From Candidatus Omnitrophota bacterium (GTDB taxonomy: Bacteria; Omnitrophota; Gorgyraeia; Gygaellales; Profunditerraquicolaceae), in contig JBAZKC010000001.1 of assembly GCA_041651035.1 (NCBI GenBank), forward strand, positions 259,244 to 323,243: a stretch of DNA of 64,000 bases, read 5' to 3'. The notes below the pieces were generated by a model. It was given only the letters and a program-made list of their open reading frames with translations, ran no database searches and had not been told where the DNA came from. Below, in pieces: positions 912 through 20,810 of the stretch (position 1 is its first letter; every line of letters begins with the position of its first letter). The translations under genes were made by a program, and so were the position numbers.

Positions 912-912
912 A

Positions 913-3055: not shown

Positions 3056-3569
3056 TTTTTATCAATTCCTTTATCTCTTGGGCTCTTTTAGATACCGAAT
3101 CTATTACTGCCTTTGAAGATATTGTCGCCCCGGTTATCGCCTGGACATCTTGTAGGGCCGGAATATTCTTATGGGAAAATTGACCGGTAAAAGACGGCTC
3201 AATAACATTAGCCCCTAAACCGGGGGTCTCATTCTGGTTTACTATTTTTATAGCGCTGATACTACCATCCGGAAGCAGGCCTGTCATTGTTTCAACGACG
3301 CTGGAATAGCCTTTGCCGTAAGCCTTAAAAGCCGCCCCGGCAAATTTACCGTCTTTAGCGTAGGCTTTATAATAAACAACATCCTCTCCGGATTTTACCG
3401 GCTCAAAGCGCTCGGCAAGAGGCAATACTTCTTTAAGGCTGGCTTCCTCTTCTGCTTTAGCCTGAGCAATGATCTTAGGCTTGGTTACTGAATTCATCGC
3501 TGCCAGCGACGCGCTAGCCGCAGCACATATCAATGATAAGATCAATCCATAACGGACCATCTCTTTCAT
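3045..3569 (-). CDS. rnfG: Rnf complex subunit G (FMN-binding)
   Basis: 174 aa protein with an N-terminal anchor and an FMN-binding-domain-like sequence (AITGATISSKAV). It sits between rnfC and rnfD. Confidence 0.8.
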   Translation of the reverse strand: MKEMVRYGLILSLICAAASASLAAMNSVTKPKIIAQAKAEEEASLKEVLPLAERFEPVKSGEDVVYYKAYAKDGKFAGAAFKAYGKGYSSVVETMTGLLPDGSISAIKIVNQNETPGLGANVIEPSFTGQFSHKNIPALQDVQAITGATISSKAVIDSVSKRAQEIKELIKNEK

Positions 3570-4840
3570 TTATTCCCCTCTAATTTCGCTCTTTTTACAG
3601 ACTGGGTTAACTTTCTTTTTGCCGGGCACACATAATTGCATAAACCGCACTCAATACAGTCCATCGCGTTATAATTTAAAGCCTCTGCCCACATCTTCTT
3701 TTCCGAAGCCAGGTTTATCAAACACGGCATAAGCCCAATGGAGCAGGCCCTCACGCAGGCGCCGCAGCGTATACAAACTTCTTCTTCCTGGGCCTTAGCC
3801 TCTTTTTTATTAAGCAGGAGCACCCCTGTGGTGGATTTTATAACCGGCACCTCATCTGTATATTGGGCGATGCCCATCATCGGCCCGCCGATAATGATCT
3901 TGGAAGGTTCCTCTTTTAAGGGGCCGCACAAATCTATCAATTCTTTTATAGGCGTGCCTATCCGCGCTAATAGATTCTTAGGGTTAGATAAAATGCTGCC
4001 GGTTACAGTTACCACGCGCTCATACAAAGGCTTATTCAAATAAACTGCTTCATAAATAGCGTATACCGTAGCCACGTTATGCACTACTACGCCTATGTCA
4101 AAAGGAAGTTTACCAAAAGGCACTTCTTTGCCTAAAATATTTTTTATAAGCTGCTTCTCTCCGCCTTGCGGATACTCCGATTTTAATATTTTAACTACAA
4201 GCCCCAAGCCATGAGCCTTAAGCTGCTTTATCGCTTCCAGTTTATTATCTTCTATGGCTATGTATATATTTTTAACTCCCAGGCACCGCGCGATAAGGTT
4301 GATACCTTTTATGACCTCCTTTGTCTTTTCTATCATCAGCCGGGAGTCGCCGGTTAAATAGGGCTCGCATTCCGCTCCGTTAATAATTAAGGTATCCACC
4401 GGTTTAGGCGGATTCAGCTTGATGTGCGCCGGGAAGCTGGCACCGCCCATTCCCACAATGCCGGCTTCAAAAATCATATTCCTTATTTGTTCTGCGCTTA
4501 AATTATCTATTTCGTTTTGGGGGCGGGGAGGCGGGAATTGGGTTTTGTCTAAACCATCGCTTTCAATGATCACTGCCGCGCATTTTCCCAGCACCGGATG
4601 CGGCCAATCCTGGATGGAGGTAACTTTTCCCGATACAGAAGCATGTATAGGAGAATAGACGTGTGCTACGGCTTGCGCGATCTTTTGTCCGGTAAGTACG
4701 GTATCCCCCGCTTTTACCTGAAGGGCGTTACAAATTTTGCCCAAATGCTGGCTTAAGGGGATATAAACATGGGAAGGCAACGGCGCCTTCTCTATGTTTT
4801 TATTTTCCGTGCTGTGTTTATGTTCCTCTAATTTAACCAT
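3566..4840 (-). CDS. rnfC: Rnf complex subunit C (NADH-binding, 2x[4Fe-4S])
   Basis: 424 aa protein with RnfC-type sequence and a C-terminal CIRCGACVRACS...CIECGLCNYVCP ferredoxin pair. It is the first gene of the operon. Confidence 0.85.
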   Translation of the reverse strand: MVKLEEHKHSTENKNIEKAPLPSHVYIPLSQHLGKICNALQVKAGDTVLTGQKIAQAVAHVYSPIHASVSGKVTSIQDWPHPVLGKCAAVIIESDGLDKTQFPPPRPQNEIDNLSAEQIRNMIFEAGIVGMGGASFPAHIKLNPPKPVDTLIINGAECEPYLTGDSRLMIEKTKEVIKGINLIARCLGVKNIYIAIEDNKLEAIKQLKAHGLGLVVKILKSEYPQGGEKQLIKNILGKEVPFGKLPFDIGVVVHNVATVYAIYEAVYLNKPLYERVVTVTGSILSNPKNLLARIGTPIKELIDLCGPLKEEPSKIIIGGPMMGIAQYTDEVPVIKSTTGVLLLNKKEAKAQEEEVCIRCGACVRACSIGLMPCLINLASEKKMWAEALNYNAMDCIECGLCNYVCPAKRKLTQSVKRAKLEGNK

Positions 4841-6081
4841 GGAATTTTATGTTTCTTTAACAGGTTTACGAGGCCTAAAAGGCTGATCAAACAACCTACG
4901 ACGACAAGGATCGCCAGGTGCGAAAATCTCTCCGCCAAAAGGCTGCTTATAAACATAAATAATAAAAACCCTAAATGCATCACTATCTCCAGGGAACTGA
5001 AGATCTTGCCCATCATCCCGTTTTCGCTTGCGTTATGAATAATGGTATTTGTGGCGATCATGTTAGGCGCAATCACCAGGCCCAGGAAAAAAGACAGCAT
5101 TGCCGCGATCGCGAAACTAGGATAACGGCTGAGGCATAAAGCAAAAACAACCAGCATCATACCGCTTAACACCAAGGAAACAAATATTATCCTGTATTGT
5201 GATAACTTTTGGCCAAAACGCCCGTAGAAAAGGGAACCTGAGAATAAACCTAGCCCCAAAAACATGATCAAAAGCCCCAGGTCCTTGGTCGCTGAATGCA
5301 GGGTCTTTTGCACAAATACGATCAGCACTACGTAAACCGCTCCCAACGCCGACCACAATATGAAGATCATCCAGGCGGCAAACCTTATATCTTTCTTTTG
5401 AAAAAAATACAAGAAACCTTCCTTGATCTCCTGTATCACGGATTTTCCGATAACCTCCACTATTTCCTGGCTTACCTTCCTGAAACTCATCACCGAGCTT
5501 GCTTTCTTAATGATGAAGAAAATAAGCGCCCCGGAGATCAAAAAACTTAAACTATCCATATAAAAACCGCTCTTAGCGCCCAGCCATTCTATCAGCACGC
5601 CGCTTACGCCAAAACCTACGATCGCCGCGATCATGCCGGTAGTATTTACCAGGGAATTCGCCATTAACAGGTCTTTTTTCTGGACCAGGTCCGGGATAAT
5701 GGATAACTTTGCCGGCACAAAGAATCTTCCTATAGAGAACATCACGAATATGATAAGGTATATGGGGATCAGGCTCTTACTGTAAAACAAAAATAGCGGT
5801 ATGGCCAATACCAAAGCCGACCTCAGGAAATCGCAGACATACATCGTCCGGCGCCTGTCCCATCTGTCTACATATACCCCGGCAATAGGGCCGATCAGGA
5901 ATACGGGGATTATGGTAAAAGAAAGGATCTTGGCGACTTCCCAGGTGGAACCCGGAGCCCTCTGGTACACAAAGTAGATCAAAGCCATCTGATTAAGCCT
6001 GTCGCCTAATTGCGAGATGATCTGGCCGAGCCACAATAAGGAAAAATTACGGTTTTTTAAGACCTCGGTGAATTTAGACAT
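4828..6081 (-). CDS. MFS transporter
   Basis: Protein with about 12 TM segments and MFS-like repeats. The track ORF runs to 6150 and overlaps tRNA-Thr, so I chose the internal Met (MSKFTEV) at 6081 as the start. Confidence 0.6.
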   Translation of the reverse strand: MSKFTEVLKNRNFSLLWLGQIISQLGDRLNQMALIYFVYQRAPGSTWEVAKILSFTIIPVFLIGPIAGVYVDRWDRRRTMYVCDFLRSALVLAIPLFLFYSKSLIPIYLIIFVMFSIGRFFVPAKLSIIPDLVQKKDLLMANSLVNTTGMIAAIVGFGVSGVLIEWLGAKSGFYMDSLSFLISGALIFFIIKKASSVMSFRKVSQEIVEVIGKSVIQEIKEGFLYFFQKKDIRFAAWMIFILWSALGAVYVVLIVFVQKTLHSATKDLGLLIMFLGLGLFSGSLFYGRFGQKLSQYRIIFVSLVLSGMMLVVFALCLSRYPSFAIAAMLSFFLGLVIAPNMIATNTIIHNASENGMMGKIFSSLEIVMHLGFLLFMFISSLLAERFSHLAILVVVGCLISLLGLVNLLKKHKIPWLN

Positions 6082-6092
6082 AAAAATAAAAG

Positions 6093-6165
6093 AGCCGATG
6101 AGTGGAATTGAACCACCGACCTTGACTTTACGAAAGTCCTGCTCTACCAACTGAGCTACATCGGC
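6093..6165 (-). tRNA. tRNA-Thr (anticodon CGU)
   Basis: Reverse complement reads GCCGATGTAGCTCAGTTGGTAGAGCAGGACTTTCGTAAAGTCAAGGTCGGTGGTTCAATTCCACTCATCGGCT. It has a 7-bp acceptor stem, a D arm, an anticodon loop TTCGTAA and a T arm GGTGG/TTCAATT/CCACT. No CCA is encoded. Confidence 0.8.
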
Positions 6166-6199
6166 ACGACAATTGTATGATTATACCACAAAAAAGAAA

Positions 6200-6227
6200 T
6201 TGACAAAATCAAAAAAGATGCTATATT
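6200..6227 (+). promoter_or_regulatory. sigma70-type promoter for cspA (TTGACA-16-TATATT)
   Basis: TTGACA at 6200-6205 and TATATT at 6222-6227, separated by a 16-nt spacer, about 120 nt upstream of the csp ATG. Confidence 0.5.
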
Positions 6228-6280
6228 ATTTTTCGTAAGGAAAACAAGGAGAAGTAAAGATTTTGGAAGCGCTCATTACA

Positions 6281-6321
6281 CCGTAAAGTCAGAATTTAAA
6301 TATGAACTTTACGGTTTTTTT
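6281..6321 (+). promoter_or_regulatory. terminator-like hairpin plus U-run in the csp 5' leader (candidate attenuator)
   Basis: CCGTAAAGT (6281-6289) pairs with ACTTTACGG (6306-6314) as a 9-bp perfect stem with a 16-nt loop, followed by TTTTTTT (6315-6321). It ends 7 nt before the GGAGGAGGTG RBS. Confidence 0.5.
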
Positions 6322-6348
6322 ATTGTGGAGGAGGTGAATAAGTAACAG

Positions 6349-6549
6349 ATGGCAAAAGGCAAAGTTAAGTGGTTCAGCAATCAAAAAGGTTATGGATTCA
6401 TCACATCTACGGACGGCAAAGACGTATTCGTGCATTACAGCGCGGTAAAAGGAGACGGTTATAAGACCTTAGAGGAAGGCCAGGAAGTTGAATTTGAGGT
6501 CACTCAAGGCCCTAAAGGAGAGCAGGCGACAAACGTCACCAGGCTGTAA
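6349..6549 (+). CDS. cspA: cold-shock protein (CspA family)
   Basis: 66 aa [21 protein letters not shown]...[17 protein letters not shown], with a canonical cold-shock domain carrying RNP1 and RNP2 motifs. Confidence 0.9.
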
Positions 6550-6574
6550 CTCCGATTAACCCGATAAAAAATTA

Positions 6575-6607
6575 CCCCGTGCCCACTAAACTGGGTGCGG
6601 GGTTTTT
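6575..6607 (+). terminator. rho-independent terminator after cspA
   Basis: 10-bp stem (CCCCGTGCCC/GGGTGCGGGG, two G.U pairs) with an 8-nt loop, followed by TTTTT. Confidence 0.7.
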
Positions 6608-6611
6608 CTAG

Positions 6612-6770
6612 CTATTTCTGTCTTAACAGGACAATGCCGCTTAGCACAGAGAATATTATCGTTACGTAATTATAGCCAGCCCAATAGGTGTTATTATTAA
6701 TAGCTATACCTACGATTGTGAAAAACGCCAAAACCAACAACAGCAGCCCAATTATTTTATTCTTTTTCAT
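6612..6770 (-). CDS. small hydrophobic membrane protein (52 aa, unannotated in the ORF track)
   Basis: ATG at 6770 is preceded by a GGGAGG RBS. Translation is MKKNKIIGLLLLVLAFFTIVGIAINNNTYWAGYNYVTIIFSVLSGIVLLRQK. It lies directly downstream of the DUF1622 gene on the same strand. Confidence 0.45.
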   Translation of the reverse strand: MKKNKIIGLLLLVLAFFTIVGIAINNNTYWAGYNYVTIIFSVLSGIVLLRQK

Positions 6771-6796
6771 ATCTGCCTCCCATTTGATCTTGCGGC

Positions 6797-7123
6797 TTAG
6801 ATCTTTTTTAAATCCTTAGTTAAAAAATAACTTAACACCGTCCTTATAACTACAATCGCCCCCAATATCCCTAAGCTTTGCCAAGTAGGAGTGATAACTG
6901 TTTTAACAATGTCTCCGGCAATAAAAAACTCTAAAGCCAAAACTAAATAACTGCCCAGCTGAAGACGGATAGCTTCATTAAGCTGTATTGTCTGGCTTCT
7001 ATTAAAGATCTCTTTTTTCAAGAAACTAAACAAAGAAATAACTATGCCCCAGATAGTAACTAAAGCGCCGATGATATTTAACGAAAAGCTGATATTATTA
7101 ATAACGCAGTGGAAGGCATCCAT
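6797..7123 (-). CDS. DUF1622-family membrane protein
   Basis: 108 aa ORF with 3 predicted TM segments. The sequence resembles the DUF1622 small membrane protein family. Confidence 0.55.
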   Translation of the reverse strand: MDAFHCVINNISFSLNIIGALVTIWGIVISLFSFLKKEIFNRSQTIQLNEAIRLQLGSYLVLALEFFIAGDIVKTVITPTWQSLGILGAIVVIRTVLSYFLTKDLKKI

Positions 7124-7327
7124 ATTTTTAAACTCCTTTCGAATAAAAAGGCAACCCCCATTTTAGAGAGTTGCCTTTGGATTAAACCTACTTTAAGCCC
7201 ATTCATACCCCTTTGTAATAATAATATTATCCTACTCACATAGAAGAAAAGCAATGTATTTTTGGGGGGTATGCGAAATTGTTATGTGATTTATACGTGT
7301 GGTAGGTGTCCCACCTTATAAGATGTG

Positions 7328-7648
7328 CTAAAATGTAACAACTTTATCGCTCTCTTTGACGATTTCATACATATCTTTCATCGTATTTATCGGGCACATC
7401 TCGGTGCCTTCTTGATTTCGAGACTTTATGCATGTACCGCAGGCAAAAATCTTGCCGCCCGATTCTATAAATTTCTTTGCCTGTTCAGCTGTATTAAATT
7501 TCTCCGTGCTTATCGCCTGATATTCCACGCCTTTGCCCATAAAGAAAACTTTAGCCTCATCCTTCTGGCCAATGGCAAAATTAGCATACCTAAGCGCGTT
7601 CCAGCATGTTTCTGCATCGTTGATAGAAATAATGATCCCTATCCTCAT
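7328..7648 (-). CDS. DsrE/DsrF-like sulfur-relay family protein
   Basis: 106 aa ORF, MRIGIIISINDAE...FACGTCIKSR, matching the DsrE/TusD fold signature with a conserved Cys. Confidence 0.6.
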   Translation of the reverse strand: MRIGIIISINDAETCWNALRYANFAIGQKDEAKVFFMGKGVEYQAISTEKFNTAEQAKKFIESGGKIFACGTCIKSRNQEGTEMCPINTMKDMYEIVKESDKVVTF

Positions 7649-7663
7649 TTTAGCCCTCCTATA

Positions 7664-7852
7664 TTAAATAACCTTTAAAGCGTTAACAGGACAAATCTTC
7701 TCGCACCCACGCAGACGGTCGCATTTTGATTCGTCACCTACCTTACATTTTCCACTTTTTTCATCAATATACAATATTTTATTAGGGCAAAGCGAAACAC
7801 AAGCCCCACAACCAATACAAAGCTCTTCATCAATAATCACTATCTTATTCAC
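7664..7852 (-). CDS. 2x[4Fe-4S] ferredoxin
   Basis: CIGCGACVSLCP and CDRLRGCEKICP motifs. The track ORF extends to 7939 and overlaps the MBL gene. I placed the start at GTG 7852, which overlaps the upstream TGA stop (GTGA) in a translational-coupling arrangement. Confidence 0.6.
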   Translation of the reverse strand: MNKIVIIDEELCIGCGACVSLCPNKILYIDEKSGKCKVGDESKCDRLRGCEKICPVNALKVI

Positions 7853-8559
7853 AGCTGTATAGTATCTCCTTCCTTGGCTCTTATAAAATCTTGTCCAAAC
7901 GCCTGGTGTATCATTTCTGTCGCGCGCTTTCCTGTACAATGCATTGGCGCAATCCTACGTATACCAAACTCTTGCAGGTTTTTTATAATACGTTTATTCA
8001 TTTCGCCTGTGTTATTTTTCAAGTGGAAACCCCCGATAAGCGTATGCACATCCACCTGAAAACGCTCCTTAACATACCTGGCGATATCCACTACCCCGGG
8101 ATGCGCGCACCCACATATTACCGCTAATCCACCGTCCGTCTTTATTACTATGGACTGCTCATATATCTTACGGCCTTCCGATTCTCCGTAAAGTTCTCCG
8201 GTAGAATAAATATTGTCTTTTATCAAGACGGCCTCTCCAACCTCAATAACCTTTACCCCAAATGAGGCAATCCTTTTCTTTATACCCTGCTTGGAGCCGG
8301 AGCAAATATAAACCGTAATATCTCTCCGGTTATTCAGCAAATACCATAACCCCGCGATATGGTCCCAGTCATCGTGTGATAGAAAAATATGCCTGATCTT
8401 GGCCGCGTCAATATTAAACTTCCGCAGATTATATAAAAATACGCCCGGGTCGCCAAAGGTATCAAAAAGCACATCCTCGCCGATTAAAAATGAAACTCCC
8501 CATCTACGGGTGAACCGCTCCCATTTACTTGAACCTGTAGCTATAATCTTAATGCGCAT
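7849..8559 (-). CDS. MBL-fold metallo-hydrolase
   Basis: 236 aa ORF with the HDDWDHIAG (HxHxDH) metallo-beta-lactamase zinc motif. Confidence 0.75.
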   Translation of the reverse strand: MRIKIIATGSSKWERFTRRWGVSFLIGEDVLFDTFGDPGVFLYNLRKFNIDAAKIRHIFLSHDDWDHIAGLWYLLNNRRDITVYICSGSKQGIKKRIASFGVKVIEVGEAVLIKDNIYSTGELYGESEGRKIYEQSIVIKTDGGLAVICGCAHPGVVDIARYVKERFQVDVHTLIGGFHLKNNTGEMNKRIIKNLQEFGIRRIAPMHCTGKRATEMIHQAFGQDFIRAKEGDTIQL

Positions 8560-8562
8560 TAT

Positions 8563-8964
8563 CTATGCCTTTAATAAGTAATCCGCGATAGCCCGGTAAA
8601 GTGTACTTACCGAGAGTATTGAACAGTGCAGATGGTCTTCGGGCAAGCCTTTAAGCCTTGCAATCACTTCTCCCGCAGATATAGAAAGAGCCTCTTTTAT
8701 GGCCTTTCCCTCTGCTAGCTTTGCCGCCATGGTTGCGCAGGCCCGCGTGGCATTACATCCTTCGGTATAATATTTAATCCTGGTAATCTTACCTTTATCA
8801 ATCACTAGATAAAATTCCATCGTGTCACCGCAAGGCCCCTTTAAATAAGAGGAACTTACCGGGTCATTCATCCTGCCGAAGTATTTTTTATCGTTAATTA
8901 AGCTTACAATTTCTTTGGGATAACCAGAAAGGCTTTCCGCAGCATCTTTATGTGTTTTTCTCAT
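8563..8964 (-). CDS. IscU/NifU N-terminal-domain-like Fe-S cluster scaffold protein
   Basis: GPCGDTMEF...GCNATRACATMA...HCSILSVSTLYRAIADYL parallels the IscU three-Cys pattern (GAPACGD...GCGSAIAS...HCSILA). I placed the start at MRKTHKD because a GGGAGG RBS lies 8 nt upstream. The stop overlaps the start of the next gene. Confidence 0.7.
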   Translation of the reverse strand: MRKTHKDAAESLSGYPKEIVSLINDKKYFGRMNDPVSSSYLKGPCGDTMEFYLVIDKGKITRIKYYTEGCNATRACATMAAKLAEGKAIKEALSISAGEVIARLKGLPEDHLHCSILSVSTLYRAIADYLLKA

Positions 8965-9809
8965 TTTATTGCCTCCCAAATCTTCCTTACTTGGGCCCCT
9001 GCCGCGCACTGCGCGTATTCAACAATAGTTTTACCTTCGACCAACGCCTTAACAACTGCCTTATCAAAAGGAATCTTTCCTATAACAGGTATATCATTCT
9101 CCCGGCAAAATGTTTCAATCCTTTCAGTCATTACCGGGTTTAAATCATATTTGTTTACTGCTAACTTAACGGGAATATTAAAATGCTTAGCCACTCCTAT
9201 TACGCGCTGGGCGTCATGCAAGCCTGAAAGCGTCGGTTCAGTCACAATTAAAGCGCAGTCAACCCCTGATAATGATGCGATAACCGGACACCCTATCCCC
9301 GGAGGGCCGTCAATAATTATATGATCTAGCGCTTGCTTCTCTGCTAATTCTTTTGCAACCTGCTTTATTTTAGCTACCAGTTTACCTGAATTTTCCTCTG
9401 CTATGCCAAGCTTTGCATGCACAAAGAGGCCATATTTGGTATCGGAAACAAACCATTCACCCGCAATATTTTCTTCCATGCGTATTGCTCCATACGGACA
9501 TATATGACTACAGAGAACGCATCCTTCGCAGGAAAAACGCTCAACCGTACAGTCAGCTCTTATTGCCCCGAACCTGCATACTGAAATACACTTTCCGCAT
9601 TTCTTGCAGAGTCCCTTATCAATAACCGCGGTTTGCCCGCTTCTAAACTCATGGCGCTCTCGAATATCAGGATGCAGTAATAAATGCAGATCTGCCGCAT
9701 CTACATCGCAATCAACCATAATCTTATTTTTGGCTAAAGCCGCGAGAGACCCTGTAACAACGGTCTTGCCTGTCCCGCCCTTTCCGCTAATTACGGCTAT
9801 TTGCTTCAT
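8961..9809 (-). CDS. MinD/Mrp-superfamily P-loop ATPase with inserted 2x[4Fe-4S] ferredoxin domain (COG1149-like)
   Basis: SGKGGTGKT Walker A motif, followed by the CKKCGKCISVC and CEGCVLCSHICP insert and then a ParA/MinD-like C-terminal half. Confidence 0.8.
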   Translation of the reverse strand: MKQIAVISGKGGTGKTVVTGSLAALAKNKIMVDCDVDAADLHLLLHPDIRERHEFRSGQTAVIDKGLCKKCGKCISVCRFGAIRADCTVERFSCEGCVLCSHICPYGAIRMEENIAGEWFVSDTKYGLFVHAKLGIAEENSGKLVAKIKQVAKELAEKQALDHIIIDGPPGIGCPVIASLSGVDCALIVTEPTLSGLHDAQRVIGVAKHFNIPVKLAVNKYDLNPVMTERIETFCRENDIPVIGKIPFDKAVVKALVEGKTIVEYAQCAAGAQVRKIWEAIK

Positions 9810-10671
9810 TCATTACTCCACAGATATGGATGTATAAGTTAATAAATTTATCCTGGTAAAAAACATCTTTTTCTACAATAGGTATGCCTTCGGAATAGCT
9901 GACCGCTATTTTTTTACTAAAAGGAATCCGCATTAAAACAGGGATATTCTCTTTACTACAATAATCCTCAACTTTTCCATCCCCGATATCAGCGCGGTTG
10001 ATGACCACGCCAAACGGTATATGTAATTTACGCAATACCTCAACTGTTAAAATAAGATCATTCAACCCAAAAGGCGTTGGTTCTGTGACTAAAACACAAA
10101 AATCGCTTCCTTTAACTGCCGTAATCACCGGGCAAGACGTTCCGGGTGGAGCATCAATGATCACCGTCTTTGTAGGATCAATATACTTTTTTACCTGCCG
10201 GATTAAAGGCGGCGACATAGCTTCGCCGATATTTAAGCGGCCGTGGACAAACCGCATATCTCCTTTTTCGCCGATCTCAATAATGCCGATTTCTTTATTG
10301 ATTTCTTTTATCGCGCCTTGAGGGCAAAGAATACTGCATGCGCCGCATCCGTGGCAAAGATGCGGGAAAATTAAAACACTGCCCTTTTTGCCTTCGCTTC
10401 CCGGCAATACGGCAATCGCATGATATGCGCAAACTTCCCGGCACCTGCCGCAATAGGTACACTTTCCCTCATCAACCTCCGGCACGGAAATATATGCCTT
10501 AGCTTTCTCTTTTATACGAGGTTTAAGAAAGAGATGGGCATTTGGCTCTTCTACATCGCAGTCAAGAAACTGGATATTCTTAAGCGACAACGCAAGATTA
10601 ACCGCAACCGTAGTCTTTCCCGTCCCGCCTTTTCCGCTGGCAATTGAAATAATCATATTAATTGACGGCAT
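9787..10671 (-). CDS. MinD/Mrp-superfamily P-loop ATPase with inserted ferredoxin domain (paralog)
   Basis: SGKGGTGKTT Walker A, CTYCGRCREVC and CHGCGACSILCP motifs. It has the same architecture as the downstream gene and overlaps it by 23 nt. Confidence 0.8.
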   Translation of the reverse strand: MPSINMIISIASGKGGTGKTTVAVNLALSLKNIQFLDCDVEEPNAHLFLKPRIKEKAKAYISVPEVDEGKCTYCGRCREVCAYHAIAVLPGSEGKKGSVLIFPHLCHGCGACSILCPQGAIKEINKEIGIIEIGEKGDMRFVHGRLNIGEAMSPPLIRQVKKYIDPTKTVIIDAPPGTSCPVITAVKGSDFCVLVTEPTPFGLNDLILTVEVLRKLHIPFGVVINRADIGDGKVEDYCSKENIPVLMRIPFSKKIAVSYSEGIPIVEKDVFYQDKFINLYIHICGVMNEANSRN

Positions 10672-11330
10672 GCAATCAAAACTTCCTGAAACTTGCTGCT
10701 TGCTTTGCTAATGATAAAATCCTTGCCTGCTAAATACCTTTCTATACCGGATAACGTGGTTTTACAAACCTCATGCTTGTTCCCTTCGCTAGTATGGATT
10801 TTATCCATTAACGTTAATCCTTCTTTGGTAAAGTCGCTTAATATAAGCTTACCTTCAAGAGAAAGCACGCGTAAGAACTCATTGATAACTTTATAGGGAT
10901 TGATTAAATGGTGCAGGGTATTGATCAAAAAGATGATGTCAAAGCTTTTATCTTTAAAGCTTAAGGACTCGCCGTTTTCAATGCGAAAATCAACCTGTTT
11001 GTCTAAGCCAAAATACCGCAGATTGAGCTTCGCGAAAACCTGTTCGGTTTCCGAGATATCAAAGGTAGTAAAACTATAACCGGCCTTTGCCAGCTCAAGC
11101 GTAAAATGGCCCTTGCCCGTCCCGGCTTCAAGTATATCACCGTAAAGAGGCTGGGCCTTCTCTAAGATGAAGGCCCGCTCTTTATCTACTTCGTAACCAA
11201 GGCTGCTATATAACGCTTTACGCTCTAAATAGCGTTTATGATTCGCTAAAAGCTCTTCTTCCAATCCTATTGTTCCTAATCGTGCTCCTTGAACATCTTG
11301 TCTTGCGTCGGATCGTTTTTCCTGATCCAC
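10653..11330 (-). CDS. class I SAM-dependent methyltransferase
   Basis: Motif I ILEAGTGKGHFTLELA plus an acidic residue after beta-2 (TFDISE). The N-terminal 55 nt overlap the upstream ferritin-like gene, so the true start may be a downstream non-ATG codon. Confidence 0.7.
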   Translation of the reverse strand: MDQEKRSDARQDVQGARLGTIGLEEELLANHKRYLERKALYSSLGYEVDKERAFILEKAQPLYGDILEAGTGKGHFTLELAKAGYSFTTFDISETEQVFAKLNLRYFGLDKQVDFRIENGESLSFKDKSFDIIFLINTLHHLINPYKVINEFLRVLSLEGKLILSDFTKEGLTLMDKIHTSEGNKHEVCKTTLSGIERYLAGKDFIISKASSKFQEVLIACRQLI

Positions 11331-11527
11331 TCCACAAGCATTGCTGTATGCTCTTTTTCCTCATTCATATTGTGCGTAAGGAGTTTCTTTAATGACTCAT
11401 CATCGGTTGCGTCAATCCGCTCCTGATAAAAATCGATTGCTTCAAGCTCTTCGCGCAGAGATTTTCTTGCTCTTTCCAAATCAACGTGCTTAGGTTCCAT
11501 CTTTTCTAATGGTTCGAAAAACGGCAT
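11276..11527 (-). CDS. ferritin-like protein resembling encapsulated ferritin (EncFtn/half-ferritin)
   Basis: 83 aa ORF, ...LREELEAIDFYQERIDATDDESLKKLLTHNMNEEKEHTAMLVEWIRKND. It shares the Glu/Glu-x-x-His di-iron layout and overall pattern with the EncFtn fold. It ends without a Gly/Ser-rich targeting tail. Confidence 0.55.
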   Translation of the reverse strand: MPFFEPLEKMEPKHVDLERARKSLREELEAIDFYQERIDATDDESLKKLLTHNMNEEKEHTAMLVEWIRKNDPTQDKMFKEHD

Positions 11528-11543
11528 CTCGTCCTCCTCTTTC

Positions 11544-11921
11544 TTAATTATCCTTGCCCGGCATACCGAATTTTGAACTTACGCTCGGAGCATCCACCGC
11601 TTTATATTTCCCATTTTTATAACCCTCTATCGCCTCTTTTACTGTCCCGGAAACTCCGGTAAAAACGCTTACTCCCGCGGCAGATAAAACCTGATGCGCA
11701 TTGGGCCCAACGTTTCCGGTAAGGACTACTTTAACGCCTTTGGATACCACAAGCTGGCCCGATTGAATACCAGCCCCACCTTGAAACTGAAAGCTGGTAT
11801 TTTCCTGTGCCTCAAAATTACCAGTATCGGTATCAAAGAAAATGAAATTCTGGCACCGGCCAAAGCGCGGATCAACCTTAGAATCCAAAACCTTACCTTC
11901 TGAAGTAATGCATATTTTCAT
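11544..11921 (-). CDS. NifX/NafY-like dinitrogenase FeMo-cofactor-family (PF02579-like) protein
   Basis: MKICITSEG...DPRFGRCQNFIFFD...GAGIQSGQLVVSKGVKVVLTGNVGPNA matches the NifB/NifX-type fold. I placed the start at 11921 because an AAGGAAGG RBS precedes it. The track ORF starts at 11948. Confidence 0.65.
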   Translation of the reverse strand: MKICITSEGKVLDSKVDPRFGRCQNFIFFDTDTGNFEAQENTSFQFQGGAGIQSGQLVVSKGVKVVLTGNVGPNAHQVLSAAGVSVFTGVSGTVKEAIEGYKNGKYKAVDAPSVSSKFGMPGKDN

Positions 11922-11938
11922 TTTTAACCTGCCCTTCC

Positions 11939-12325
11939 TTAATGACACGCGCCACCTTCACCATGACCCTTATGATCCTTGCACGCATCAAGACCACCCA
12001 AGGTATTATTCATAAAATCATCCAGCGCTTTTTGCACATTACCAGAATAACCAAACACCTGAACTCCTGCTTGCGCGAATTTCTGCTGGGCGCCCATCCC
12101 CATACCTCCGGCAATAACATGGGTTATCTTATACTTTAGAATCTCATCAACCGCGACACACCCGCCTCCGCCATGCACAGCAGTATTCGGTACAATGCGG
12201 GTGCCTGTAATTTTCTTCTTATCTTTATCAATATCCGCCAAGAAGAAAAACTTACACTGCCCGAAATGCGCGCAGACATTGCCATGCACACCATTCTCAT
12301 CTTCCAATACGACTCCGACTCTCAT
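11939..12325 (-). CDS. NifX/NafY-like FeMo-cofactor-family protein (paralog) with Cys/His-rich tail
   Basis: MRVGVVLEDENGVHGNVCAHFGQCKFFFLAD...VIAGGMGMGA, with a C-terminal CKDHKGHGEGGACH metal-binding-like tail. Confidence 0.65.
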   Translation of the reverse strand: MRVGVVLEDENGVHGNVCAHFGQCKFFFLADIDKDKKKITGTRIVPNTAVHGGGGCVAVDEILKYKITHVIAGGMGMGAQQKFAQAGVQVFGYSGNVQKALDDFMNNTLGGLDACKDHKGHGEGGACH

Positions 12326-12361
12326 ATTTAAATCTCCTTCCTTAATAAAGCTTTGTGACAG

Positions 12362-12712
12362 CTATTTTTCCTCTTCTTTTTTACCCTCTAAATCCTGAAC
12401 ACGTGCCTGTACAGCATCAAGCTCATCTTTGAGATAACCAGCCTGATCTTTAAGAATCGCTAATTCGTCGTCCTTTGATCCTATACGGCCAAAACCGCCA
12501 AACGCCTGCATGCCTCTTTGAGTCCTCATCCAACCCGGAAGCCCGGTCGCATTGAAACAATTCCTAAAACCACGGCCCCCTCCTCTTCCAAAAGAACCCC
12601 TGCTATTACCCGGCCGAACGTCTGCGCCATTTACTACTACCGCACAATATCCTCTACCACCGCCTGTCATCGCACCTTGCCCTATAGGGCCTGTTCCATC
12701 TTTATTCGGCAT
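12362..12712 (-). CDS. DUF5320-like glycine/arginine-rich small protein with C-terminal coiled coil
   Basis: 116 aa ORF starting MPNKDGTGPIGQGAMTGGGRGYC, followed by a GRGG-rich stretch and then an acidic coiled-coil tail. Confidence 0.5.
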   Translation of the reverse strand: MPNKDGTGPIGQGAMTGGGRGYCAVVVNGADVRPGNSRGSFGRGGGRGFRNCFNATGLPGWMRTQRGMQAFGGFGRIGSKDDELAILKDQAGYLKDELDAVQARVQDLEGKKEEEK

Positions 12713-12757
12713 TTTACTTTCCTCCCATGCTTGATTTTCTCTTAATTAAAATAAACA

Positions 12758-12892
12758 TTACCGACAGTTTCCTTTTTCCCCACCCTTCTTTTTCCCTATT
12801 CCTTTTCCAGAAGATCTTCCCTTACCCTGTCCTTTTCCGACTCTTGCTCCTTTTGAGCCACTCCTTGGGCCTGTTCCATCAAAACGCGGCAT
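12758..12892 (-). CDS. DUF5320-like mini-protein (44 aa, not in the ORF track)
   Basis: ATG at 12892 with a GGGAGGTG RBS 6 nt upstream. Translation is MPRFDGTGPRSGSKGARVGKGQGKGRSSGKGIGKKKGGEKGNCR. It shares the MPxxDGTGP N-terminus with the downstream paralog. Confidence 0.45.
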   Translation of the reverse strand: MPRFDGTGPRSGSKGARVGKGQGKGRSSGKGIGKKKGGEKGNCR

Positions 12893-12951
12893 ATCACACC
12901 TCCCTTTGTTATTGAAAACCATTTCCATTACAAGAGAAAAAAATATAGCGG

Positions 12952-13425
12952 TTATTTCTTACCGCTACATTTGTCGCATAAACCGTAAAATTGGATAACG
13001 TGATTAGTGATCTTGAAATTGTATTTGGCCCCTAAACCCTTCTCGGTTTCCCTTAAAAGCTCAACCTCTTCATCAATGAAGTCTGTATAATCAACTACCT
13101 TGTTGCAATCGGTGCAAACCAAATGATGGTGATGGTGCGCTCCTTTGGGGCCTTCTGCCAATTCATAACGGGCCCTCCCATCTCCGAAATCAAGCTTATA
13201 CACCATCCCAAGGCTGGATAATACGTCTAATGTCCTGTAAATAGTGGTAAGGCCGACATTAGGATATTTCGGATGAACCTTCATGTAAATATCTTCAGCG
13301 CTTAAGTGGCCTTCTGATCTAGATAAGATATCCAGGATTGCTTCCCGGCCTATAGTAAGCCTGTAGCCGCAGCCCCTGAATTTACCATGCCACCAGCCCT
13401 GCCCTTGACAATTGCCTCTTGACAT
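12952..13425 (-). CDS. fur: Fur-family transcriptional regulator
   Basis: 157 aa ORF with a winged-helix half plus the HHHHHLVCTDC...CDKC metal site typical of Fur, Zur and PerR. A GGGAG RBS precedes it. Confidence 0.8.
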   Translation of the reverse strand: MSRGNCQGQGWWHGKFRGCGYRLTIGREAILDILSRSEGHLSAEDIYMKVHPKYPNVGLTTIYRTLDVLSSLGMVYKLDFGDGRARYELAEGPKGAHHHHHLVCTDCNKVVDYTDFIDEEVELLRETEKGLGAKYNFKITNHVIQFYGLCDKCSGKK

Positions 13426-13468
13426 ATTTAATATTACTCCCTGCCTGCCGGTAGGCAGGCTTAATGAA

Positions 13469-13514
13469 AATGGTTACCATTATTAAATATACACTATGCG
13501 ACTATTTTTGTCAA
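13469..13514 (-). promoter_or_regulatory. fur promoter (TTGACA-17-TATATT) with a Fur-box-like 6-1-6 palindrome AATGGTtACCATT at the start site
   Basis: Read on the minus strand: -35 TTGACA at 13514-13509, -10 TATATT at 13491-13486 and a perfect palindrome at 13481-13469. Confidence 0.5.
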
Positions 13515-13792
13515 GCTCTTTTTTTAAGCAAAGAGAGCGCTGCCTCGTTTATTGCTATCTCTTGACTAAGCGCTCGAAAATTCTTTTCGCTTCGCTCAAC
13601 AATTTTCTTCGCAGGCTGTGAGAGGGCCCCAAAAAAGAAAATTCCCGCCTCGTAAGATATGCCAAAATTTTCTTCGTTCCCTTTAAGGAACTCTGATAAT
13701 TTTGGCATACTCGGCGGGATAATTCGCGCATATAACTTACGTCGGAGCAAGCCGCAAAAGCGGCGAGCCCTCCGTAAGTTATGCGCTTATTA

Positions 13793-13864
13793 TGCCGAGG
13801 GAGGGAATCGGACCCCCCACGCCGGCCTTTTCAGGGCCGCGCTCTACCACTGAGCTACCTCGGC
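13793..13864 (-). tRNA. tRNA-Phe (anticodon GAA)
   Basis: Reverse complement reads GCCGAGGTAGCTCAGTGGTAGAGCGCGGCCCTGAAAAGGCCGGCGTGGGGGGTCCGATTCCCTCCCTCGGC plus discriminator A. Anticodon stem CGGCC/GGCCG with loop CTGAAAA. The T-loop reads TCCGATT. Confidence 0.75.
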
Positions 13865-17355: not shown

Positions 17356-19371
17356 TTATTCATTTATGATCTGCCAAATTTTATTTAGGTTCCGGCGCGC
17401 CTCTTCCTCTCCTCTTTTGGCGAATTCTTCGGCCTTATGCAATTCCAACCAATAAAGCCCCGAGGTATCCGGATGTAAAACAATATCCGCCAGCTGCCCT
17501 TCTTTTTGCGCCACTTCAGACTGCAGTATCTCAACACTGCTGAATATTATATCCAGTATATTCGTCTGAAAACTGTCCTTAAAATGCCTGCCCAGGTTAA
17601 ACCATCTTTTCTTTCCGGCGGCCTCCTGGACAGGAGTGGAGATCTTCTCTTTCATCTTCTCATATTGGCGGAGCACGTCTTCTCTGGAGGGCGTGACATT
17701 TACCGCGATGATTTTTTTTATGCCCGCCTTCCACAATGCTTCCGTAGGCAGTGGATTGATTATCCCGCCGTCAAAGAGCATCTCTTCTTTGAACTTAAAA
17801 GGCGAGAATACCCCCGGCATAGTACAGCTTGCCATAACCGCGTCCACCAATAGGCCCTTATCCAGCACCTTTGATTCTTTATGTTTAACGTCGCTGGCAA
17901 TGATCTTCAAGGGCATTTTTGTATCATAGAAAGTTTTATTGCCCAGGTATTTCTTCAACAGCCTACGCAGTTTAATGCCTTTGATAAATCCCAACTTGGG
18001 GAATGTCAGGTCTATAAGCCCCCAGATGTGTTTTGGTTCCCTGAATTCTTTAGTGATCTCCAGTATCTCTTGGCTTGACCTGCCGCTTGCCCAGAGGCTG
18101 GCGATAAGTGCTCCGACGCTGGAACCGGCAATAATATCTATGGGGATCTTTTCTTCCTCGATCACCTTTAATACGCCGATATGGCAAAACCCGTAGCCTA
18201 CGCCCACGCCTAATACCAAACCCACAAGGCTCTCGGTTAAATTCCGGACAATCCTCTTTATCGCCCTGGCATATTCAGAGTCCGGCTCATCCAAAACAAG
18301 CCTGTCAATAGCTCCAAAATCTATTCTAGGCAGAGTAGCAAATACTTTTTTGTCCAGCATCTGGACCTGTTCTTCATGCGTCAGTTTGGAGAATTTATAT
18401 TCATTGATAACTATCTTTATCTTATCCCCGCTGAAATTAAATTCTGTCTTAAGCCTCTCTATTAAATTATGCGTCCTTTTTAAATCCACTGGCTCGGGGC
18501 TGGTTAAGATATGTATAAGGTCCGACTGATTCAGTATGTTAAAAATAGGCCTGTCCATCAGGGAAGGCAGGTCCAGGATCAGGTAGTGGTAATCATTGAC
18601 TAACAGGCTTAAAATACCCAGTAATCTTCTTACGCAAGATTCATCCTCCTGGGTATAATGAAAACAAGCCAGGTCTACGCCGAACTTGCTCTTTACGATA
18701 AGATCTTTTATTACGCCCGGATTATCCGCCTCCGCGGAAGACAAGTCAAGAACGCCGGCTGCGGCGATCTCTAATTTCTGCGGCAGGCTATGGGCTTTAT
18801 CCTGAGGGACGATATCCAGGATAATTACCGACTTATGGGTTTCTTTCCGGATACTTAAAGCAAGATTAAGGGCATAGACGGTTTTACCCGCGGAGGAATA
18901 AGAACTGAACACGGAGACAACCGTGCTTTCAAAGATGGTCTTATGGTGCGTATCTTTGCGCTTAAGCCTGCGGGATAACGTCTGGCTTAAATCAATAGAC
19001 AGCCGGGGGATGCTCTTTAAAATAAAATCAAAGTCATCTTTCTTGATGCTTAAAAGCAGGCAGTCATTTAAGGCCTCGGCGGTTACTGAATGCGTTTCAT
19101 TGGTTAAAAGCGAAATGATCCCAAAGTACTTTCCCCGGTGCAGGTATTCTAAAATATTCCTGCTGCCATGTTGATCCTCGGTATATATTACCACCCTGCC
19201 TGAGACAAGCAGGTAAAAAGAGCTGGGCGGAGAACCTTCTTTATAGATGATCCCGCCTTTCTTATATTCCAGGATACTGGATCTTTCTCTTATAATATCG
19301 CGTTCCTCTATAGAAAGATCAGCGAATAAGGGTATCTCTTTTAATATTAGATCGCTGGTTATTAGTTCCAT
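17356..19371 (-). CDS. multidomain protein: N-terminal cyclic-nucleotide-binding domain, degenerate ParA/MinD-like middle domain, C-terminal patatin-like phospholipase
   Basis: Residues about 20-130 form a cNMP-binding/CAP-like region (FYLLVSGRV...GKYFGIISLL). Residues about 150-370 form a ParA-like fold with an altered Walker A (SSYSSAGKT). Residues about 385-560 carry the patatin GxGxxG (GVGVGYG), GxSxG (AGSSVGA) and DGG motifs. Confidence 0.7.
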   Translation of the reverse strand: MELITSDLILKEIPLFADLSIEERDIIRERSSILEYKKGGIIYKEGSPPSSFYLLVSGRVVIYTEDQHGSRNILEYLHRGKYFGIISLLTNETHSVTAEALNDCLLLSIKKDDFDFILKSIPRLSIDLSQTLSRRLKRKDTHHKTIFESTVVSVFSSYSSAGKTVYALNLALSIRKETHKSVIILDIVPQDKAHSLPQKLEIAAAGVLDLSSAEADNPGVIKDLIVKSKFGVDLACFHYTQEDESCVRRLLGILSLLVNDYHYLILDLPSLMDRPIFNILNQSDLIHILTSPEPVDLKRTHNLIERLKTEFNFSGDKIKIVINEYKFSKLTHEEQVQMLDKKVFATLPRIDFGAIDRLVLDEPDSEYARAIKRIVRNLTESLVGLVLGVGVGYGFCHIGVLKVIEEEKIPIDIIAGSSVGALIASLWASGRSSQEILEITKEFREPKHIWGLIDLTFPKLGFIKGIKLRRLLKKYLGNKTFYDTKMPLKIIASDVKHKESKVLDKGLLVDAVMASCTMPGVFSPFKFKEEMLFDGGIINPLPTEALWKAGIKKIIAVNVTPSREDVLRQYEKMKEKISTPVQEAAGKKRWFNLGRHFKDSFQTNILDIIFSSVEILQSEVAQKEGQLADIVLHPDTSGLYWLELHKAEEFAKRGEEEARRNLNKIWQIINE

Positions 19372-20628: not shown

Positions 20629-20810
20629 AAAAAATCCCAACAAATAAATGTTGGGACTAACATAAAAAACAGCCGATAAAGGTCTTTGGGCTCATCATCC
20701 CTTTTACCTTTAACTTCGGTAACCCAGCCACCATGTCCCTGTTGTTATCCGGGATTTAGGTCTGTGGCTTTGCGCCCCCCGGTTTCCCGGGGTTTACCTT
20801 TATCGGCCTA
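20629..20810 (-). ncRNA. candidate structured RNA or leader with its own promoter and two intrinsic terminators
   Basis: On the minus strand, a 12-bp long-range stem (20807-20796 with 20683-20672) encloses about 110 nt that include a CCCCGG-GAAA-CCGGGG tetraloop hairpin. A UUUUUU run follows. A second hairpin (TCCCAACA/TGTTGGGA) follows, then another UUUUUU at 20634-20629. Confidence 0.35.

Follow-up and report, generated by a model that had tools for sequence, protein, structure and literature searches.

A predicted Fur-governed variant of the orange-protein gene cluster in an uncultured Omnitrophota bacterium

The orange-protein (ORP) complex of Desulfovibrio vulgaris is specific to anaerobes and comprises two MinD-like proteins with ferredoxin motifs (Orp3 and Orp4), the orange protein itself (Orp8), a metal-cluster protein (Orp5) and MrpORP (Orp9) (PMC6345978). 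The orp genes are organised in two divergent sigma-54 operons, which are activated by the redox sensor OrpR (PMC8359166). A further described system built on a NifX-type domain is IssA of Pyrococcus furiosus, where this domain carries a cationic tail rich in glycine and aromatic residues that was proposed to bind anionic thioferrate; MTH1175 was named as a tail-less member of the IssA type, next to a so far uncharacterised “IssX” clade with glycine-rich tails (PMC5524996). Here, we describe a 13-gene array from an uncultured Omnitrophota metagenome-assembled genome (MAG; GCA_041651035.1, contig JBAZKC010000001.1), located in a stretch of 64,000 nucleotides (positions 259,244 to 323,243 of the contig, hereafter the window). 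Based on sequence comparison, its core appears to be the ORP set, placed under the control of a Fur-family regulator encoded by the first gene of the array. All genes and regulatory elements of the array given below lie on the minus strand of the window.

The core was assigned by comparison with contigs encoding proteins 68–75% identical to the D. gigas ORP (L084/L085), and not with the D. vulgaris sequences; the identities of Orp7 and Orp5 were taken from later papers and from gene position. Around these close ORP homologues, the gene order is a small Gly/Arg-rich protein, ORP, a first and a second ferredoxin-MinD ATPase, and a second Nitro_FeMo-Co protein. The window genes find their best matches at the equivalent positions: NifX-like protein 1 (NifX1, 11544–11921) in the ORP gene (3.5e-27), ATPase 2 (9787–10671) in the first ATPase (1.3e-78), ATPase 1 (8961–9809) in the second (3e-91) and NifX-like protein 2 (NifX2, 11939–12325) in the fourth gene (1.6e-15). 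The window core, which also includes DUF5320 and in which the two ATPase genes are translationally coupled, is orthologous one-to-one to the ORP-cluster genes, which would make the locus a Fur-governed variant of this cluster. Consistently, NifX1 (Pfam Nitro_FeMo-Co, 1.1e-23) matches TM1290 (1rdu, 3e-21), the D. gigas ORP over nearly its full length (2wfb, 7e-19) and MTH1175 (1eo1, 3.2e-17) among solved structures. NifX2 (Pfam Nitro_FeMo-Co, 1.7e-17) features CxHFGxC as a motif and has a tail rich in Cys and His. In NCBIfam, it aligns with the C-terminal domain of the MrpORP model (4.5e-13, under the cutoff), and it is the counterpart of the second Di-Nase protein of ORP clusters (Orp5). Both ATPases combine ParA/CbiA and Fer4 domains (Pfam) and are of the Orp3/Orp4 type. 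A preliminary description of this DNA had presented the array as having no assigned pathway or known function; the role of ORP is indeed still open, but the core is the published Desulfovibrio ORP cluster (PMC6345978, PMC8359166).

Beyond the single-domain ORP homologue, the second Di-Nase-type protein and the two ATPases, the locus shares with the Desulfovibrio cluster a small protein rich in Gly and Arg, whose gene lies just ahead of the ORP gene, and a distribution restricted to anaerobes, archaeal relatives included. It differs in its organisation as a single sigma-70 array led by a Fur-family gene and equipped with two Fur boxes, whereas the Desulfovibrio genes form two divergent sigma-54 operons under redox-sensing OrpR. 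It also lacks MrpORP, the fusion of an Mrp/NBP35 protein with a Di-Nase domain (only partial matches to NCBIfam NF041136 were obtained, with 39–55 bits against a cutoff of 450, and the operon holds no such gene), and it adds an IscU-type scaffold, a metallo-beta-lactamase (MBL)-fold protein, an S-adenosylmethionine (SAM)-dependent methyltransferase, an EncFtn-like ferritin, a small ferredoxin and a DsrE-like protein. No gene for an OrpR-type sigma-54 activator is present among the 13 genes according to Pfam; a –24/–12 element was not searched for. In clusters of the Desulfovibrio type, a DUF134 protein whose C-terminus is rich in Cys, Arg and Gly (CRGRGRGC) serves as the upstream regulator (L085:6942-7752, L086:1711-2521), followed by a 112-aa protein of GQGRGQG repeats. 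ORP-type clusters thus appear to occur with at least three regulators, i.e., OrpR, DUF134 and Fur. Literature searches on COG1149 and COG1433 returned nothing relevant.

The array itself consists of 13 successive open reading frames (ORFs) of the same direction, running from 13425 down to 7328 and each preceded by a ribosome-binding site (RBS). As previously proposed, the order is fur, a mini ORF, the DUF5320 gene, NifX2, NifX1, EncFtn, methyltransferase, ATPase 2, ATPase 1, IscU, MBL, ferredoxin and DsrE. In longest-ORF coordinates, six overlaps occur (NifX2/NifX1, EncFtn/methyltransferase, methyltransferase/ATPase 2, ATPase 2/ATPase 1, ATPase 1/IscU and MBL/ferredoxin), the remaining gaps being 3–45 nt. 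Refinement of the start codons by RBS position and orthologue length placed them at 12892 for the mini ORF (44 aa), 11921 for NifX1, probably TTG 11264 for the methyltransferase, 8964 for IscU and GTG 7852 for the ferredoxin. In the refined array, neighbouring genes overlap by 4–23 nt or are separated by at most 59 nt, with an overlap of 23 nt between the ATPase genes and of 4 nt at both the ATPase 1/IscU and the MBL/ferredoxin junctions. The same order is found in many independent metagenome contigs, and the arrangement is far more than chance. Upstream, the array is bounded by a tRNA-Phe gene (13793-13864) and a strong sigma-70-type promoter; downstream, a gap of 204 nt separates it from a DUF1622 gene (6797-7123), which we excluded as operon member as it is not conserved behind the operon in relatives. 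An interaction of the products, as in one physical complex, is only suggested by the overlapping genes and by fusions of NifX-type and DUF5320 domains in other lineages (see below). NCBIfam provided an equivalog-level assignment for none of the 13 products. ATPase 1 is 100% identical to a protein of a Candidatus Omnitrophota MAG and 77–90% identical to more than 100 further clusters, of which those with a named source are labelled Omnitrophota/Omnitrophica. An Rnf-type cluster encoding RnfC-, RnfD-, RnfA/E- and RnfB-like products is located at the window start (93-4840, minus strand), which fits an anaerobic host.

The first gene, fur (12952–13425), encodes a 157-aa Fur-family regulator (Pfam FUR, PF01475, 4.9e-32). 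Features of this protein are its N-terminal extension, WWHGKFRGCGYR, which is conserved, five consecutive histidines and two CxxC pairs (CTDC and CDKC). The best NCBIfam model is the Bacillus-type Fur with 134.8 bits (cutoff 220), followed by PerR with 88 bits and Zur with 44 bits, and among solved structures Fur (9ire, 4e-31) ranks before PerR (2fe3, 4.7e-22). None of the characterised Fur, PerR or Zur proteins is thus matched at equivalog level in NCBIfam, and the regulator belongs to a distinct Fur subfamily. The N-terminal extension contains the motif WWHG(K/R)(F/L)RG.G(Y/F)R in all strong orthologues. Some of these orthologues (L016:133, L009:4321; cf. 13380-13425 in the window) begin with MPRRDGTGP or MPRRDGCGP, and the same signature (MPxxDGTGP...GxGYC) opens the DUF5320 proteins. 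The regulator could therefore share a docking or ligand motif with the small proteins of the cluster; the resemblance is short and not universal.

Two operators flank this gene. The promoter of fur (13486–13514) is of the sigma-70 type and agrees with the consensus in 11 of 12 positions (–35 TTGACA at 13514-13509, 17-nt spacer, –10 TATATT at 13491-13486). An equivalent CTTGACA...TATAxT element, followed by an AT-rich palindrome and then the RBS, precedes fur in a further 11 loci belonging to several phyla. Fur box 1, TAATGGTAACCATTTTCATTA (13462–13482, 28.0 bits), begins 4 nt past the –10 hexamer and would thus cover the expected transcription start. Fur box 2, TAATGGAAATGGTTTTCAATA (12910–12930), is located 21 nt past the fur stop codon, shortly before the RBS of the gene that follows, and is with 30.6 bits the top site of the window. 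These scores were obtained with a position weight matrix built from sites of other loci only, leaving out the window's own, and the scan of the 64-kb window gave exactly these two strong sites; the top score in 100 simulated 64-kb sequences was 23.9 bits. The box consensus, TAATGAAAATnATTTTCATTA, contains a 7-1-7 core, TGAAAATnATTTTCA, that is one position off the B. subtilis Fur half-site, and box 1 shares, by our own count, 15 of 19 positions with the 19-bp E. coli Fur consensus.

The operators are conserved together with the gene order. A metagenome scan with the Fur protein delivered 80 loci encoding orthologues of 83–97% identity, and DUF5320/NifX genes directly follow fur in all 52 orthologue loci with at least 1.5 kb of downstream sequence. 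Box 1 scores above 20 bits in 65 of 68 orthologous loci and box 2 in 69 of 70, always 19–22 nt past the fur stop. The second palindrome behind the fur stop is a feature of most Omnitrophota-type loci; in the non-Omnitrophota loci L015, L031, L034, L036 and L047, fur abuts the next gene and there is no second box. All fetched loci together amount to 1.79 Mb and contain, away from fur genes, just a single additional site that exceeds 22 bits (L120:379); it has no informative neighbour. In the window itself, a weak box-like site (28324-28344, 16.2 bits) falls within an ORF for a TonB-dependent receptor (28103-29917, minus strand). It was rejected as an operator, as its score is at chance level (about 0.3 such sites expected per window) and no strong box precedes the receptor gene. 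Taken together, synteny and operators argue for a dedicated regulator of the ORP-type genes and of itself, and this subfamily seems to regulate locally, not globally. By analogy to the behaviour of the family, metal-loaded Fur, most likely with Fe2+, would act as repressor. In the literature library searched, no paper links a Fur box to the orange protein or to Omnitrophota.

Two hairpins accompany the operators. The first, GCCTGCC-TACC-GGCAGGC (13443–13460), lies in the 5′-untranslated region between box 1 and the fur RBS and was not seen in the aligned upstream regions of the relatives inspected. The second (12941–12972) is terminator-like, with a 12-bp stem and a T-run, and overlaps the fur stop codon; its stem is present in the minimum-free-energy fold, and the region has a z-score of –3.3. 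As this hairpin overlaps the stop codon and a sigma-70-like promoter was not detected ahead of box 2, the 12 downstream genes are probably read through from the fur promoter, with box 2 as a second checkpoint. An alternative option could be an internal promoter that escaped detection.

To see how widely the set recurs, we scanned genomes, one per species, with an alignment of both ATPase paralogues and obtained 80 loci with ATPase 1 orthologues of 49–75% identity. Bacterial labels among them include Omnitrophota, Elusimicrobia, Chloroflexota, Desulfobacterota, Aminicenantes, Ignavibacteria, Atribacteria, Clostridia and Spirochaetes, and the archaeal ones are Bathyarchaeia, Methanocellaceae, Methanophagales, Methanohalophilus, Altiarchaeota and Thermoplasmata. 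Linkage was counted by comparing the window proteins with six-frame ORFs in the 38 loci with full flanks (at least 4 kb upstream and at least 3 kb downstream). ATPase 2 lies directly upstream of ATPase 1 in all 38, and the ORP-like NifX1 is linked to ATPase 1 in 35. NifX2-like proteins follow with 21, a third, Mrp-like ATPase that is absent from the window operon with 18, the IscU-like scaffold with 17 and DUF5320, probably undercounted owing to its low-complexity sequence, with 14 loci. A Fur-family gene is linked in nine loci, eight of them with the strong orthologue type, and the MBL protein in seven, archaeal ones included; the methyltransferase (3/38), DsrE (1/38) and EncFtn (0/38) are rare or missing. 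Fur of the strong type carries the labels Omnitrophota, Clostridia, Atribacteria, Aminicenantes and others across the 80 genome loci. From these counts, the operon consists of three layers: a near-universal ORP core, the recurrent companions IscU, MBL, Fur and Mrp-like ATPase, and Omnitrophota-type additions, namely the methyltransferase (essentially confined to this type), DsrE, the small ferredoxin, EncFtn and the mini ORF. The earlier suggestion that ferredoxin-MinD ATPases, NifX-like proteins and DUF5320 recur together in anaerobes is borne out by these scans.

The DUF5320 protein (12362–12712, 116 aa; Pfam PF17253, 6.9e-20) gives a hint at what the core may bind. Its first 80 residues are cationic, with a pI of 11.7 and 23 glycines, and its C-terminal part is acidic and coiled-coil-like. 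In many other phyla, one chain consists of a NifX1 domain, an (H/K)FGMG linker, a Gly/Arg/Met-rich stretch and finally the coiled-coil-like DUF5320 end; in Pfam, such proteins carry PF02579 together with PF17253 with 36–48 bits against a cutoff of 27. The NifX1 protein of the window has no such tail and ends exactly at the linker motif, (K/H)FGMxG, 19 residues past the domain. DUF5320 may accordingly be viewed as the detachable, IssA-like tail of the orange-protein domain. Literature on DUF5320 was limited to passing mentions in two unrelated papers. In other loci, two NifX-type domains are fused with each other (L033:387-1232, L043:7626-8516, L014:7057-7818 and L034:4501-5256), either as ORP-like domain, coiled coil and NifX2-like domain, or with the NifX2-like domain preceding the ORP-like one. 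As some lineages fuse both domains, these proteins provide further evidence that the two NifX proteins act together.

Between fur and the DUF5320 gene, the mini ORF (12758–12892, strong RBS before 12892) encodes a Gly/Lys/Arg-rich product of 44 aa (pI 11.5) that starts with MPRFDGTGP and ends with GNCR. The preliminary description had called it a DUF5320 mini-protein. Pfam confirms 12 of its 13 family calls, the exception being this product, which has no Pfam match and shares with DUF5320 only the MPxxDGTGP N-terminus and the Gly/Lys-rich composition. Among the relatives inspected, it is present in L089 only. In L015, an ORP-like domain is fused to a Gly/Arg-rich stretch plus zinc ribbon, and L024 encodes the same tail as a free 74-aa protein; the mini ORF is probably a truncated relative of these proteins. 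An origin by tandem duplication of the DUF5320 5′ end is a possibility; the local DNA alignment score of 29 is not significant against a shuffle maximum of 28.

With respect to IssA, the NifX-type domain (IPR003731) of the window matches MTH1175 and may be of the IssA type; it is found alongside a cationic, Gly-rich segment of similar composition, and the fusion of an ORP-like domain with DUF5320 in many phyla corresponds to an IssA-like architecture. Unlike in IssA, the tail resides in the window on separate proteins (DUF5320 and the mini ORF product), and NifX1 has no tail in cis. The DUF5320 tail furthermore has a coiled-coil-like end, a feature missing from the description of IssA, and the window genes are linked to those of two ATPases and Fur.

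For the ATPase pair, conservation of cysteines suggests a further metal-binding function. ATPase 2 features a deviant Walker A motif, two CxxCxxCxxxC motifs and a switch-II cysteine. The eight ferredoxin cysteines are invariant in the orthologues of both ATPases, save for one histidine in one ATPase 2; Cys174 of the switch-II motif PPGxxC is invariant in all 145 sequences (77 of ATPase 1 and 68 of ATPase 2), and of the 68 ATPase 2 sequences, 67 retain Cys34. This pattern suggests a nucleotide-gated metal or cluster site at the interface of a heterodimer. NifH, Mrp/NBP35 and CooC possess metal sites at the dimer interface, the likeness to the present proteins being one of position. With the SIMIBI class of NifH, BchL, Mrp-NBP35 and CooC, the pair has in common the deviant Walker A GKGGxGKT, the DxPPG Walker B/switch II followed by an invariant cysteine and an expected dimer, here as heterodimer of paralogues from overlapping genes. 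Unlike members of this class, it carries a 2x[4Fe-4S] ferredoxin domain inserted after switch I and lacks the CxxC of Mrp/NBP35. In a BLASTP comparison of ATPase 1 with A. vinelandii NifH, only the P-loop/switch I region was aligned (2e-06), so that this alignment did not confirm an equivalence of Cys174 with NifH Cys132. Among solved structures, the ATPases are closest to MinD (1g3q, 8e-13). C. difficile CD2169 was considered as a lead and rejected; it is a single ferredoxin-MinD gene beside hcp, is lower and not higher in a fur mutant, and stands in a different context.

The remaining genes encode accessory products. The IscU/NifU_N-type Fe-S scaffold (8563–8964, 133 aa; Pfam NifU_N, 8.9e-21) contains the CGD, GC and HC motifs and reaches 81 bits, under the cutoff, with NCBIfam NifU_clost. 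It is the sole element shared with the canonical ISC, SUF and NIF systems. The earlier claim that the array represents no canonical Isc, Suf, Nif or Dsr system holds in that no cysteine desulfurase gene is among its 13 genes; an aminotransferase class V domain was detected by Pfam neither in these products nor in the immediate neighbours. The small ferredoxin (7664–7852, 62 aa, GTG start; Pfam Fer4, 3e-14) has one canonical and one atypical 4Fe-4S motif, and its position behind MBL is conserved in six loci (L089, L094, L112, L118, L127 and L134). The DsrE-like protein (7328–7648, 106 aa; Pfam DsrE, 1.1e-09), encoded by the last gene of the array, has a small sulfur-carrier fold with an ACGTC motif and no sequence relative in the Protein Data Bank (PDB); its gene occurs in Omnitrophota/Elusimicrobia-type loci only.

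The EncFtn-like mini-ferritin (11276–11527, 83 aa; Pfam PF22277, 9.9e-31) is best matched in the PDB by NE0167 (3k6c, 8.7e-23), a 95-aa chain deposited as uncharacterised protein. It lacks a C-terminal extension, and its alignments to encapsulated ferritins of 116–140 aa end at about residue 80. No encapsulin shell gene is present in the operon; the rest of the window was not exhaustively scanned. Absent from all 80 genome loci, the gene is found in L087/88 and in several loci of the Fur-based metagenome scan, and is accessory to some Omnitrophota-type loci only. The class I SAM-dependent methyltransferase (10653–11264, 203 aa; Pfam Methyltransf_11, 2.3e-19), whose longest ORF begins at 11330 with the true start probably at the TTG at 11264, has only generic matches in NCBIfam and in the PDB; its position is conserved in Omnitrophota-type loci and rare elsewhere. 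The MBL-fold protein (7849–8559) matches Pfam Lactamase_B weakly (8.4e-07) and the structures 7dck (1.6e-33), TM1679 (3h3e, 2.6e-27) and 2p4z (8.4e-23). Judging from the molecule name of 2p4z, we take it to be of the COG1237 type; a literature search on 7DCK returned nothing relevant. In relatives, further genes join or follow the operon: the L087 operon has inserted genes for a metal transporter of the ZIP family, for proteins with DnaJ and TrmO_N domains and for a second methyltransferase, with NikR and an OprB porin behind the operon (5104-8309 and 8615-10472), and in L001 (13789-15543) ZnuA and ABC-3 metal-uptake genes are located just downstream.

On balance, we consider it probable that the array represents a Fur-governed ORP-type system for holding and passing iron-sulfide or Fe-S species. 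Fur control and the NifX-DUF5320 fusions point to iron or Fe-S handling, and a link to iron is further indicated by the ZIP transporter within the operon of L087 and the ZnuA/ABC-3 genes behind that of L001. Homology, synteny, operators and fusions are observed; the following course of events assumes an effector metal, a direction of regulation, a bound species and a role of the ATPases. Metal-loaded Fur, most likely with Fe2+, would occupy both boxes, blocking initiation at the fur promoter as well as read-through past the weak terminator, so that the 12 downstream genes would be made under metal scarcity, as is E. coli suf. The NifX-domain proteins may then hold anionic iron-sulfide species or an Fe-S cluster, with the cationic, Gly/Arg-rich DUF5320 and the mini-protein supplying in trans the tail that IssA has in cis. 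Using ATP, its four ferredoxin clusters and a possible site at the dimer interface, for which the invariant switch-II cysteine is the candidate ligand, the ATPase heterodimer could load, reduce or release the bound species. The IscU-type scaffold might serve as cluster donor or acceptor, and the ferredoxin and the DsrE-like protein could feed electrons and sulfur. EncFtn, methyltransferase and MBL would be add-ons, of which MBL recurs in other phyla and the other two are confined to Omnitrophota-type loci. In its organisation, such a system resembles E. coli suf, a Fur-box-controlled operon with an Fe-S scaffold and an ATPase component, and low-iron expression is presumed here as well. The core is, however, not homologous to suf, and the window lacks SufBCD, SufS/SufE and any cysteine desulfurase. 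Moreover, the regulator is encoded in the operon itself and looks local within about 1.8 Mb of sampled neighbourhoods.

Several points weigh against this explanation. The likeness of DUF5320 to the IssA tail is compositional. For Fur, both the effector metal and the direction of regulation are deduced from family knowledge only. Transcription of the downstream genes would probably have to pass the terminator-like hairpin behind fur, as a sigma-70-like promoter before box 2 was looked for and not found. The operon contains neither a cysteine desulfurase nor an MrpORP gene. Iron storage would also fit poorly with induction at iron starvation, and P. furiosus IssA is reportedly made under iron- and sulfide-replete conditions. 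Finally, the ORP proteins of D. vulgaris are tied to cell morphology and controlled by redox via OrpR, not by iron (PMC8359166), and the cluster with which the orange protein of D. gigas was isolated is of the Mo-Cu-S type, not an Fe-S species (PMC6345978).

A more specific form of the favoured explanation, which we regard as speculative and rather doubtful, is that of a “split IssA”: ORP-type NifX and DUF5320 would together constitute a reservoir and carrier of iron-sulfide or Fe-S, loaded by the ATPases and induced via Fur at low iron. The ferredoxin-MinD heterodimer would load or unload this carrier with ATP and low-potential electrons, under a dedicated Fur in several phyla.

Among the other explanations, a dedicated Nif-like maturation line for one complex metallocofactor, with the methyltransferase and MBL tailoring the cofactor for its target enzyme, fares best and is still improbable in our view. 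The Nitro_FeMo-Co (NifX) fold is known for carrying FeMo-co precursors, the ATPases with their invariant switch-II cysteine and ferredoxin clusters would suit such a role, and the position of the methyltransferase in Omnitrophota-type loci as well as the presence of MBL in several phyla speak for tailoring steps. However, no candidate target enzyme is conserved beside the cluster in 163 loci, and the core is shared by bacteria and archaea of very different metabolisms. The two putative tailoring proteins are themselves no constant part of the set, the methyltransferase being essentially of the Omnitrophota type only and MBL linked in just 7 of the 38 full-flank loci, and control by a sensor of the Fur type, whose boxes look classical, speaks for general metal economy. 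The proposal of the preliminary description that the array is a maturation module for an unidentified metallocofactor is therefore still speculation.

Somewhat less plausible, and unlikely overall, is a peroxide or redox-stress module, in which a PerR-like regulator would govern the repair or replacement of damaged Fe-S clusters. Fur and PerR boxes are similar, PerR models do match the regulator (88 bits; 2fe3, 4.7e-22), and the D. vulgaris orp genes respond to redox potential (PMC8359166). Directly behind the ORP-type operon of L002/L003 (11982-13841), which represent one Omnitrophota lineage, a second, shorter Fur-family gene (135 aa, 51 bits to the window Fur) is followed by a catalase gene. 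This pair looks like a separate PerR-like unit, which suggests that another paralogue serves the peroxide role. In addition, Fur models and structures clearly outscore those of PerR, and for this reason iron would fit better than peroxide as signal, although control by either had been considered before; the two conserved operators lend support to Fur control as such. The DNA-reading helix of the regulator has the sequence VYRTL of the Fur type and not the VYNNL of the PerR type (as in the B. subtilis proteins), and the half-site of the box begins with TGA, as in Fur boxes.

A role in cell division or positioning, where the MinD-like ATPases would place a structure at the pole or septum, seems more unlikely still. 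It draws on MinD (1g3q, 8e-13) as the nearest solved structure, on the morphological defects of D. vulgaris orpR mutants and on the polar localisation of MrpORP (PMC6345978, PMC8359166). In the loci examined, however, the ATPase pair is not linked to any division gene, the conserved partners are all metal or sulfur proteins and the regulator is a metal sensor; the division role was called a hypothesis by its own authors (PMC8359166). Handling or detoxification of thiometallates (Mo/W/Cu-sulfide) is the least probable, since in spite of the homology of NifX1 to the D. gigas ORP with its non-covalent [S2MoS2CuS2MoS2] cluster (PMC6345978), neither the operon nor its relatives contain genes for Mo, W or Cu transport or sensing (such as those of the ModE and CsoR types), the linked transporters belong to the ZIP and ZnuA/ABC-3 types, the regulator is of the Fur type and MrpORP's Di-Nase domain carries an Fe-S cluster and not Mo-Cu (PMC6345978).

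Apart from the array, the window contains several further features. The stretch that separates tRNA-Phe from the promoter of fur contains an inverted repeat that is long but imperfect, AACTTACGGAGGGCTCGCCGC-TTTT-GCGGCTTGCTCCGACGTAAGTT (13731-13785, minus strand); it follows the tRNA gene and may represent the tRNA terminator or a repeat element. A c-di-GMP-I riboswitch (20715-20808, minus strand, 76.9 bits) is located directly upstream of an ORF for a GH1 glycosidase (19374-20603, minus strand), which is followed by an ORF whose product unites a cyclic-nucleotide-binding domain and a CbiA-like region with a patatin phospholipase domain (17356-19371, minus strand). The longest-ORF start (TTG 6150) of an MFS transporter ORF (4828-6150) overlaps tRNA-Thr (6092-6165, minus strand), and the true start of this transporter must consequently lie further downstream.

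Few gene sets specific to anaerobes are as conserved as the ORP genes, with ATPase 1 alone being 49–75% identical across bacterial and archaeal phyla. Their role has been open since the description in Desulfovibrio, the sole suggestion so far being an indirect link to cell division. While the ORP cluster as such was already known, the dedicated Fur regulator and the extra modules set this locus apart: in several phyla, the ORP set is predicted to be wired to its own Fur-type sensor via two conserved operators, and it repeatedly travels with an IscU scaffold and metal importers. This also assigns a context to DUF5320 and describes a seemingly local Fur subfamily. Together with the putative detachable tail, these links lead to a testable hypothesis, namely an iron-responsive handling of iron-sulfide or Fe-S species, and the Fur boxes and expression under iron limitation offer an experimental handle on ORP function. 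If the idea of a split IssA were true, strict anaerobes, bacterial as well as archaeal, would have a fourth route of Fe-S trafficking that is widespread and starts from sulfide rather than cysteine, and the ORP complex would gain its function.

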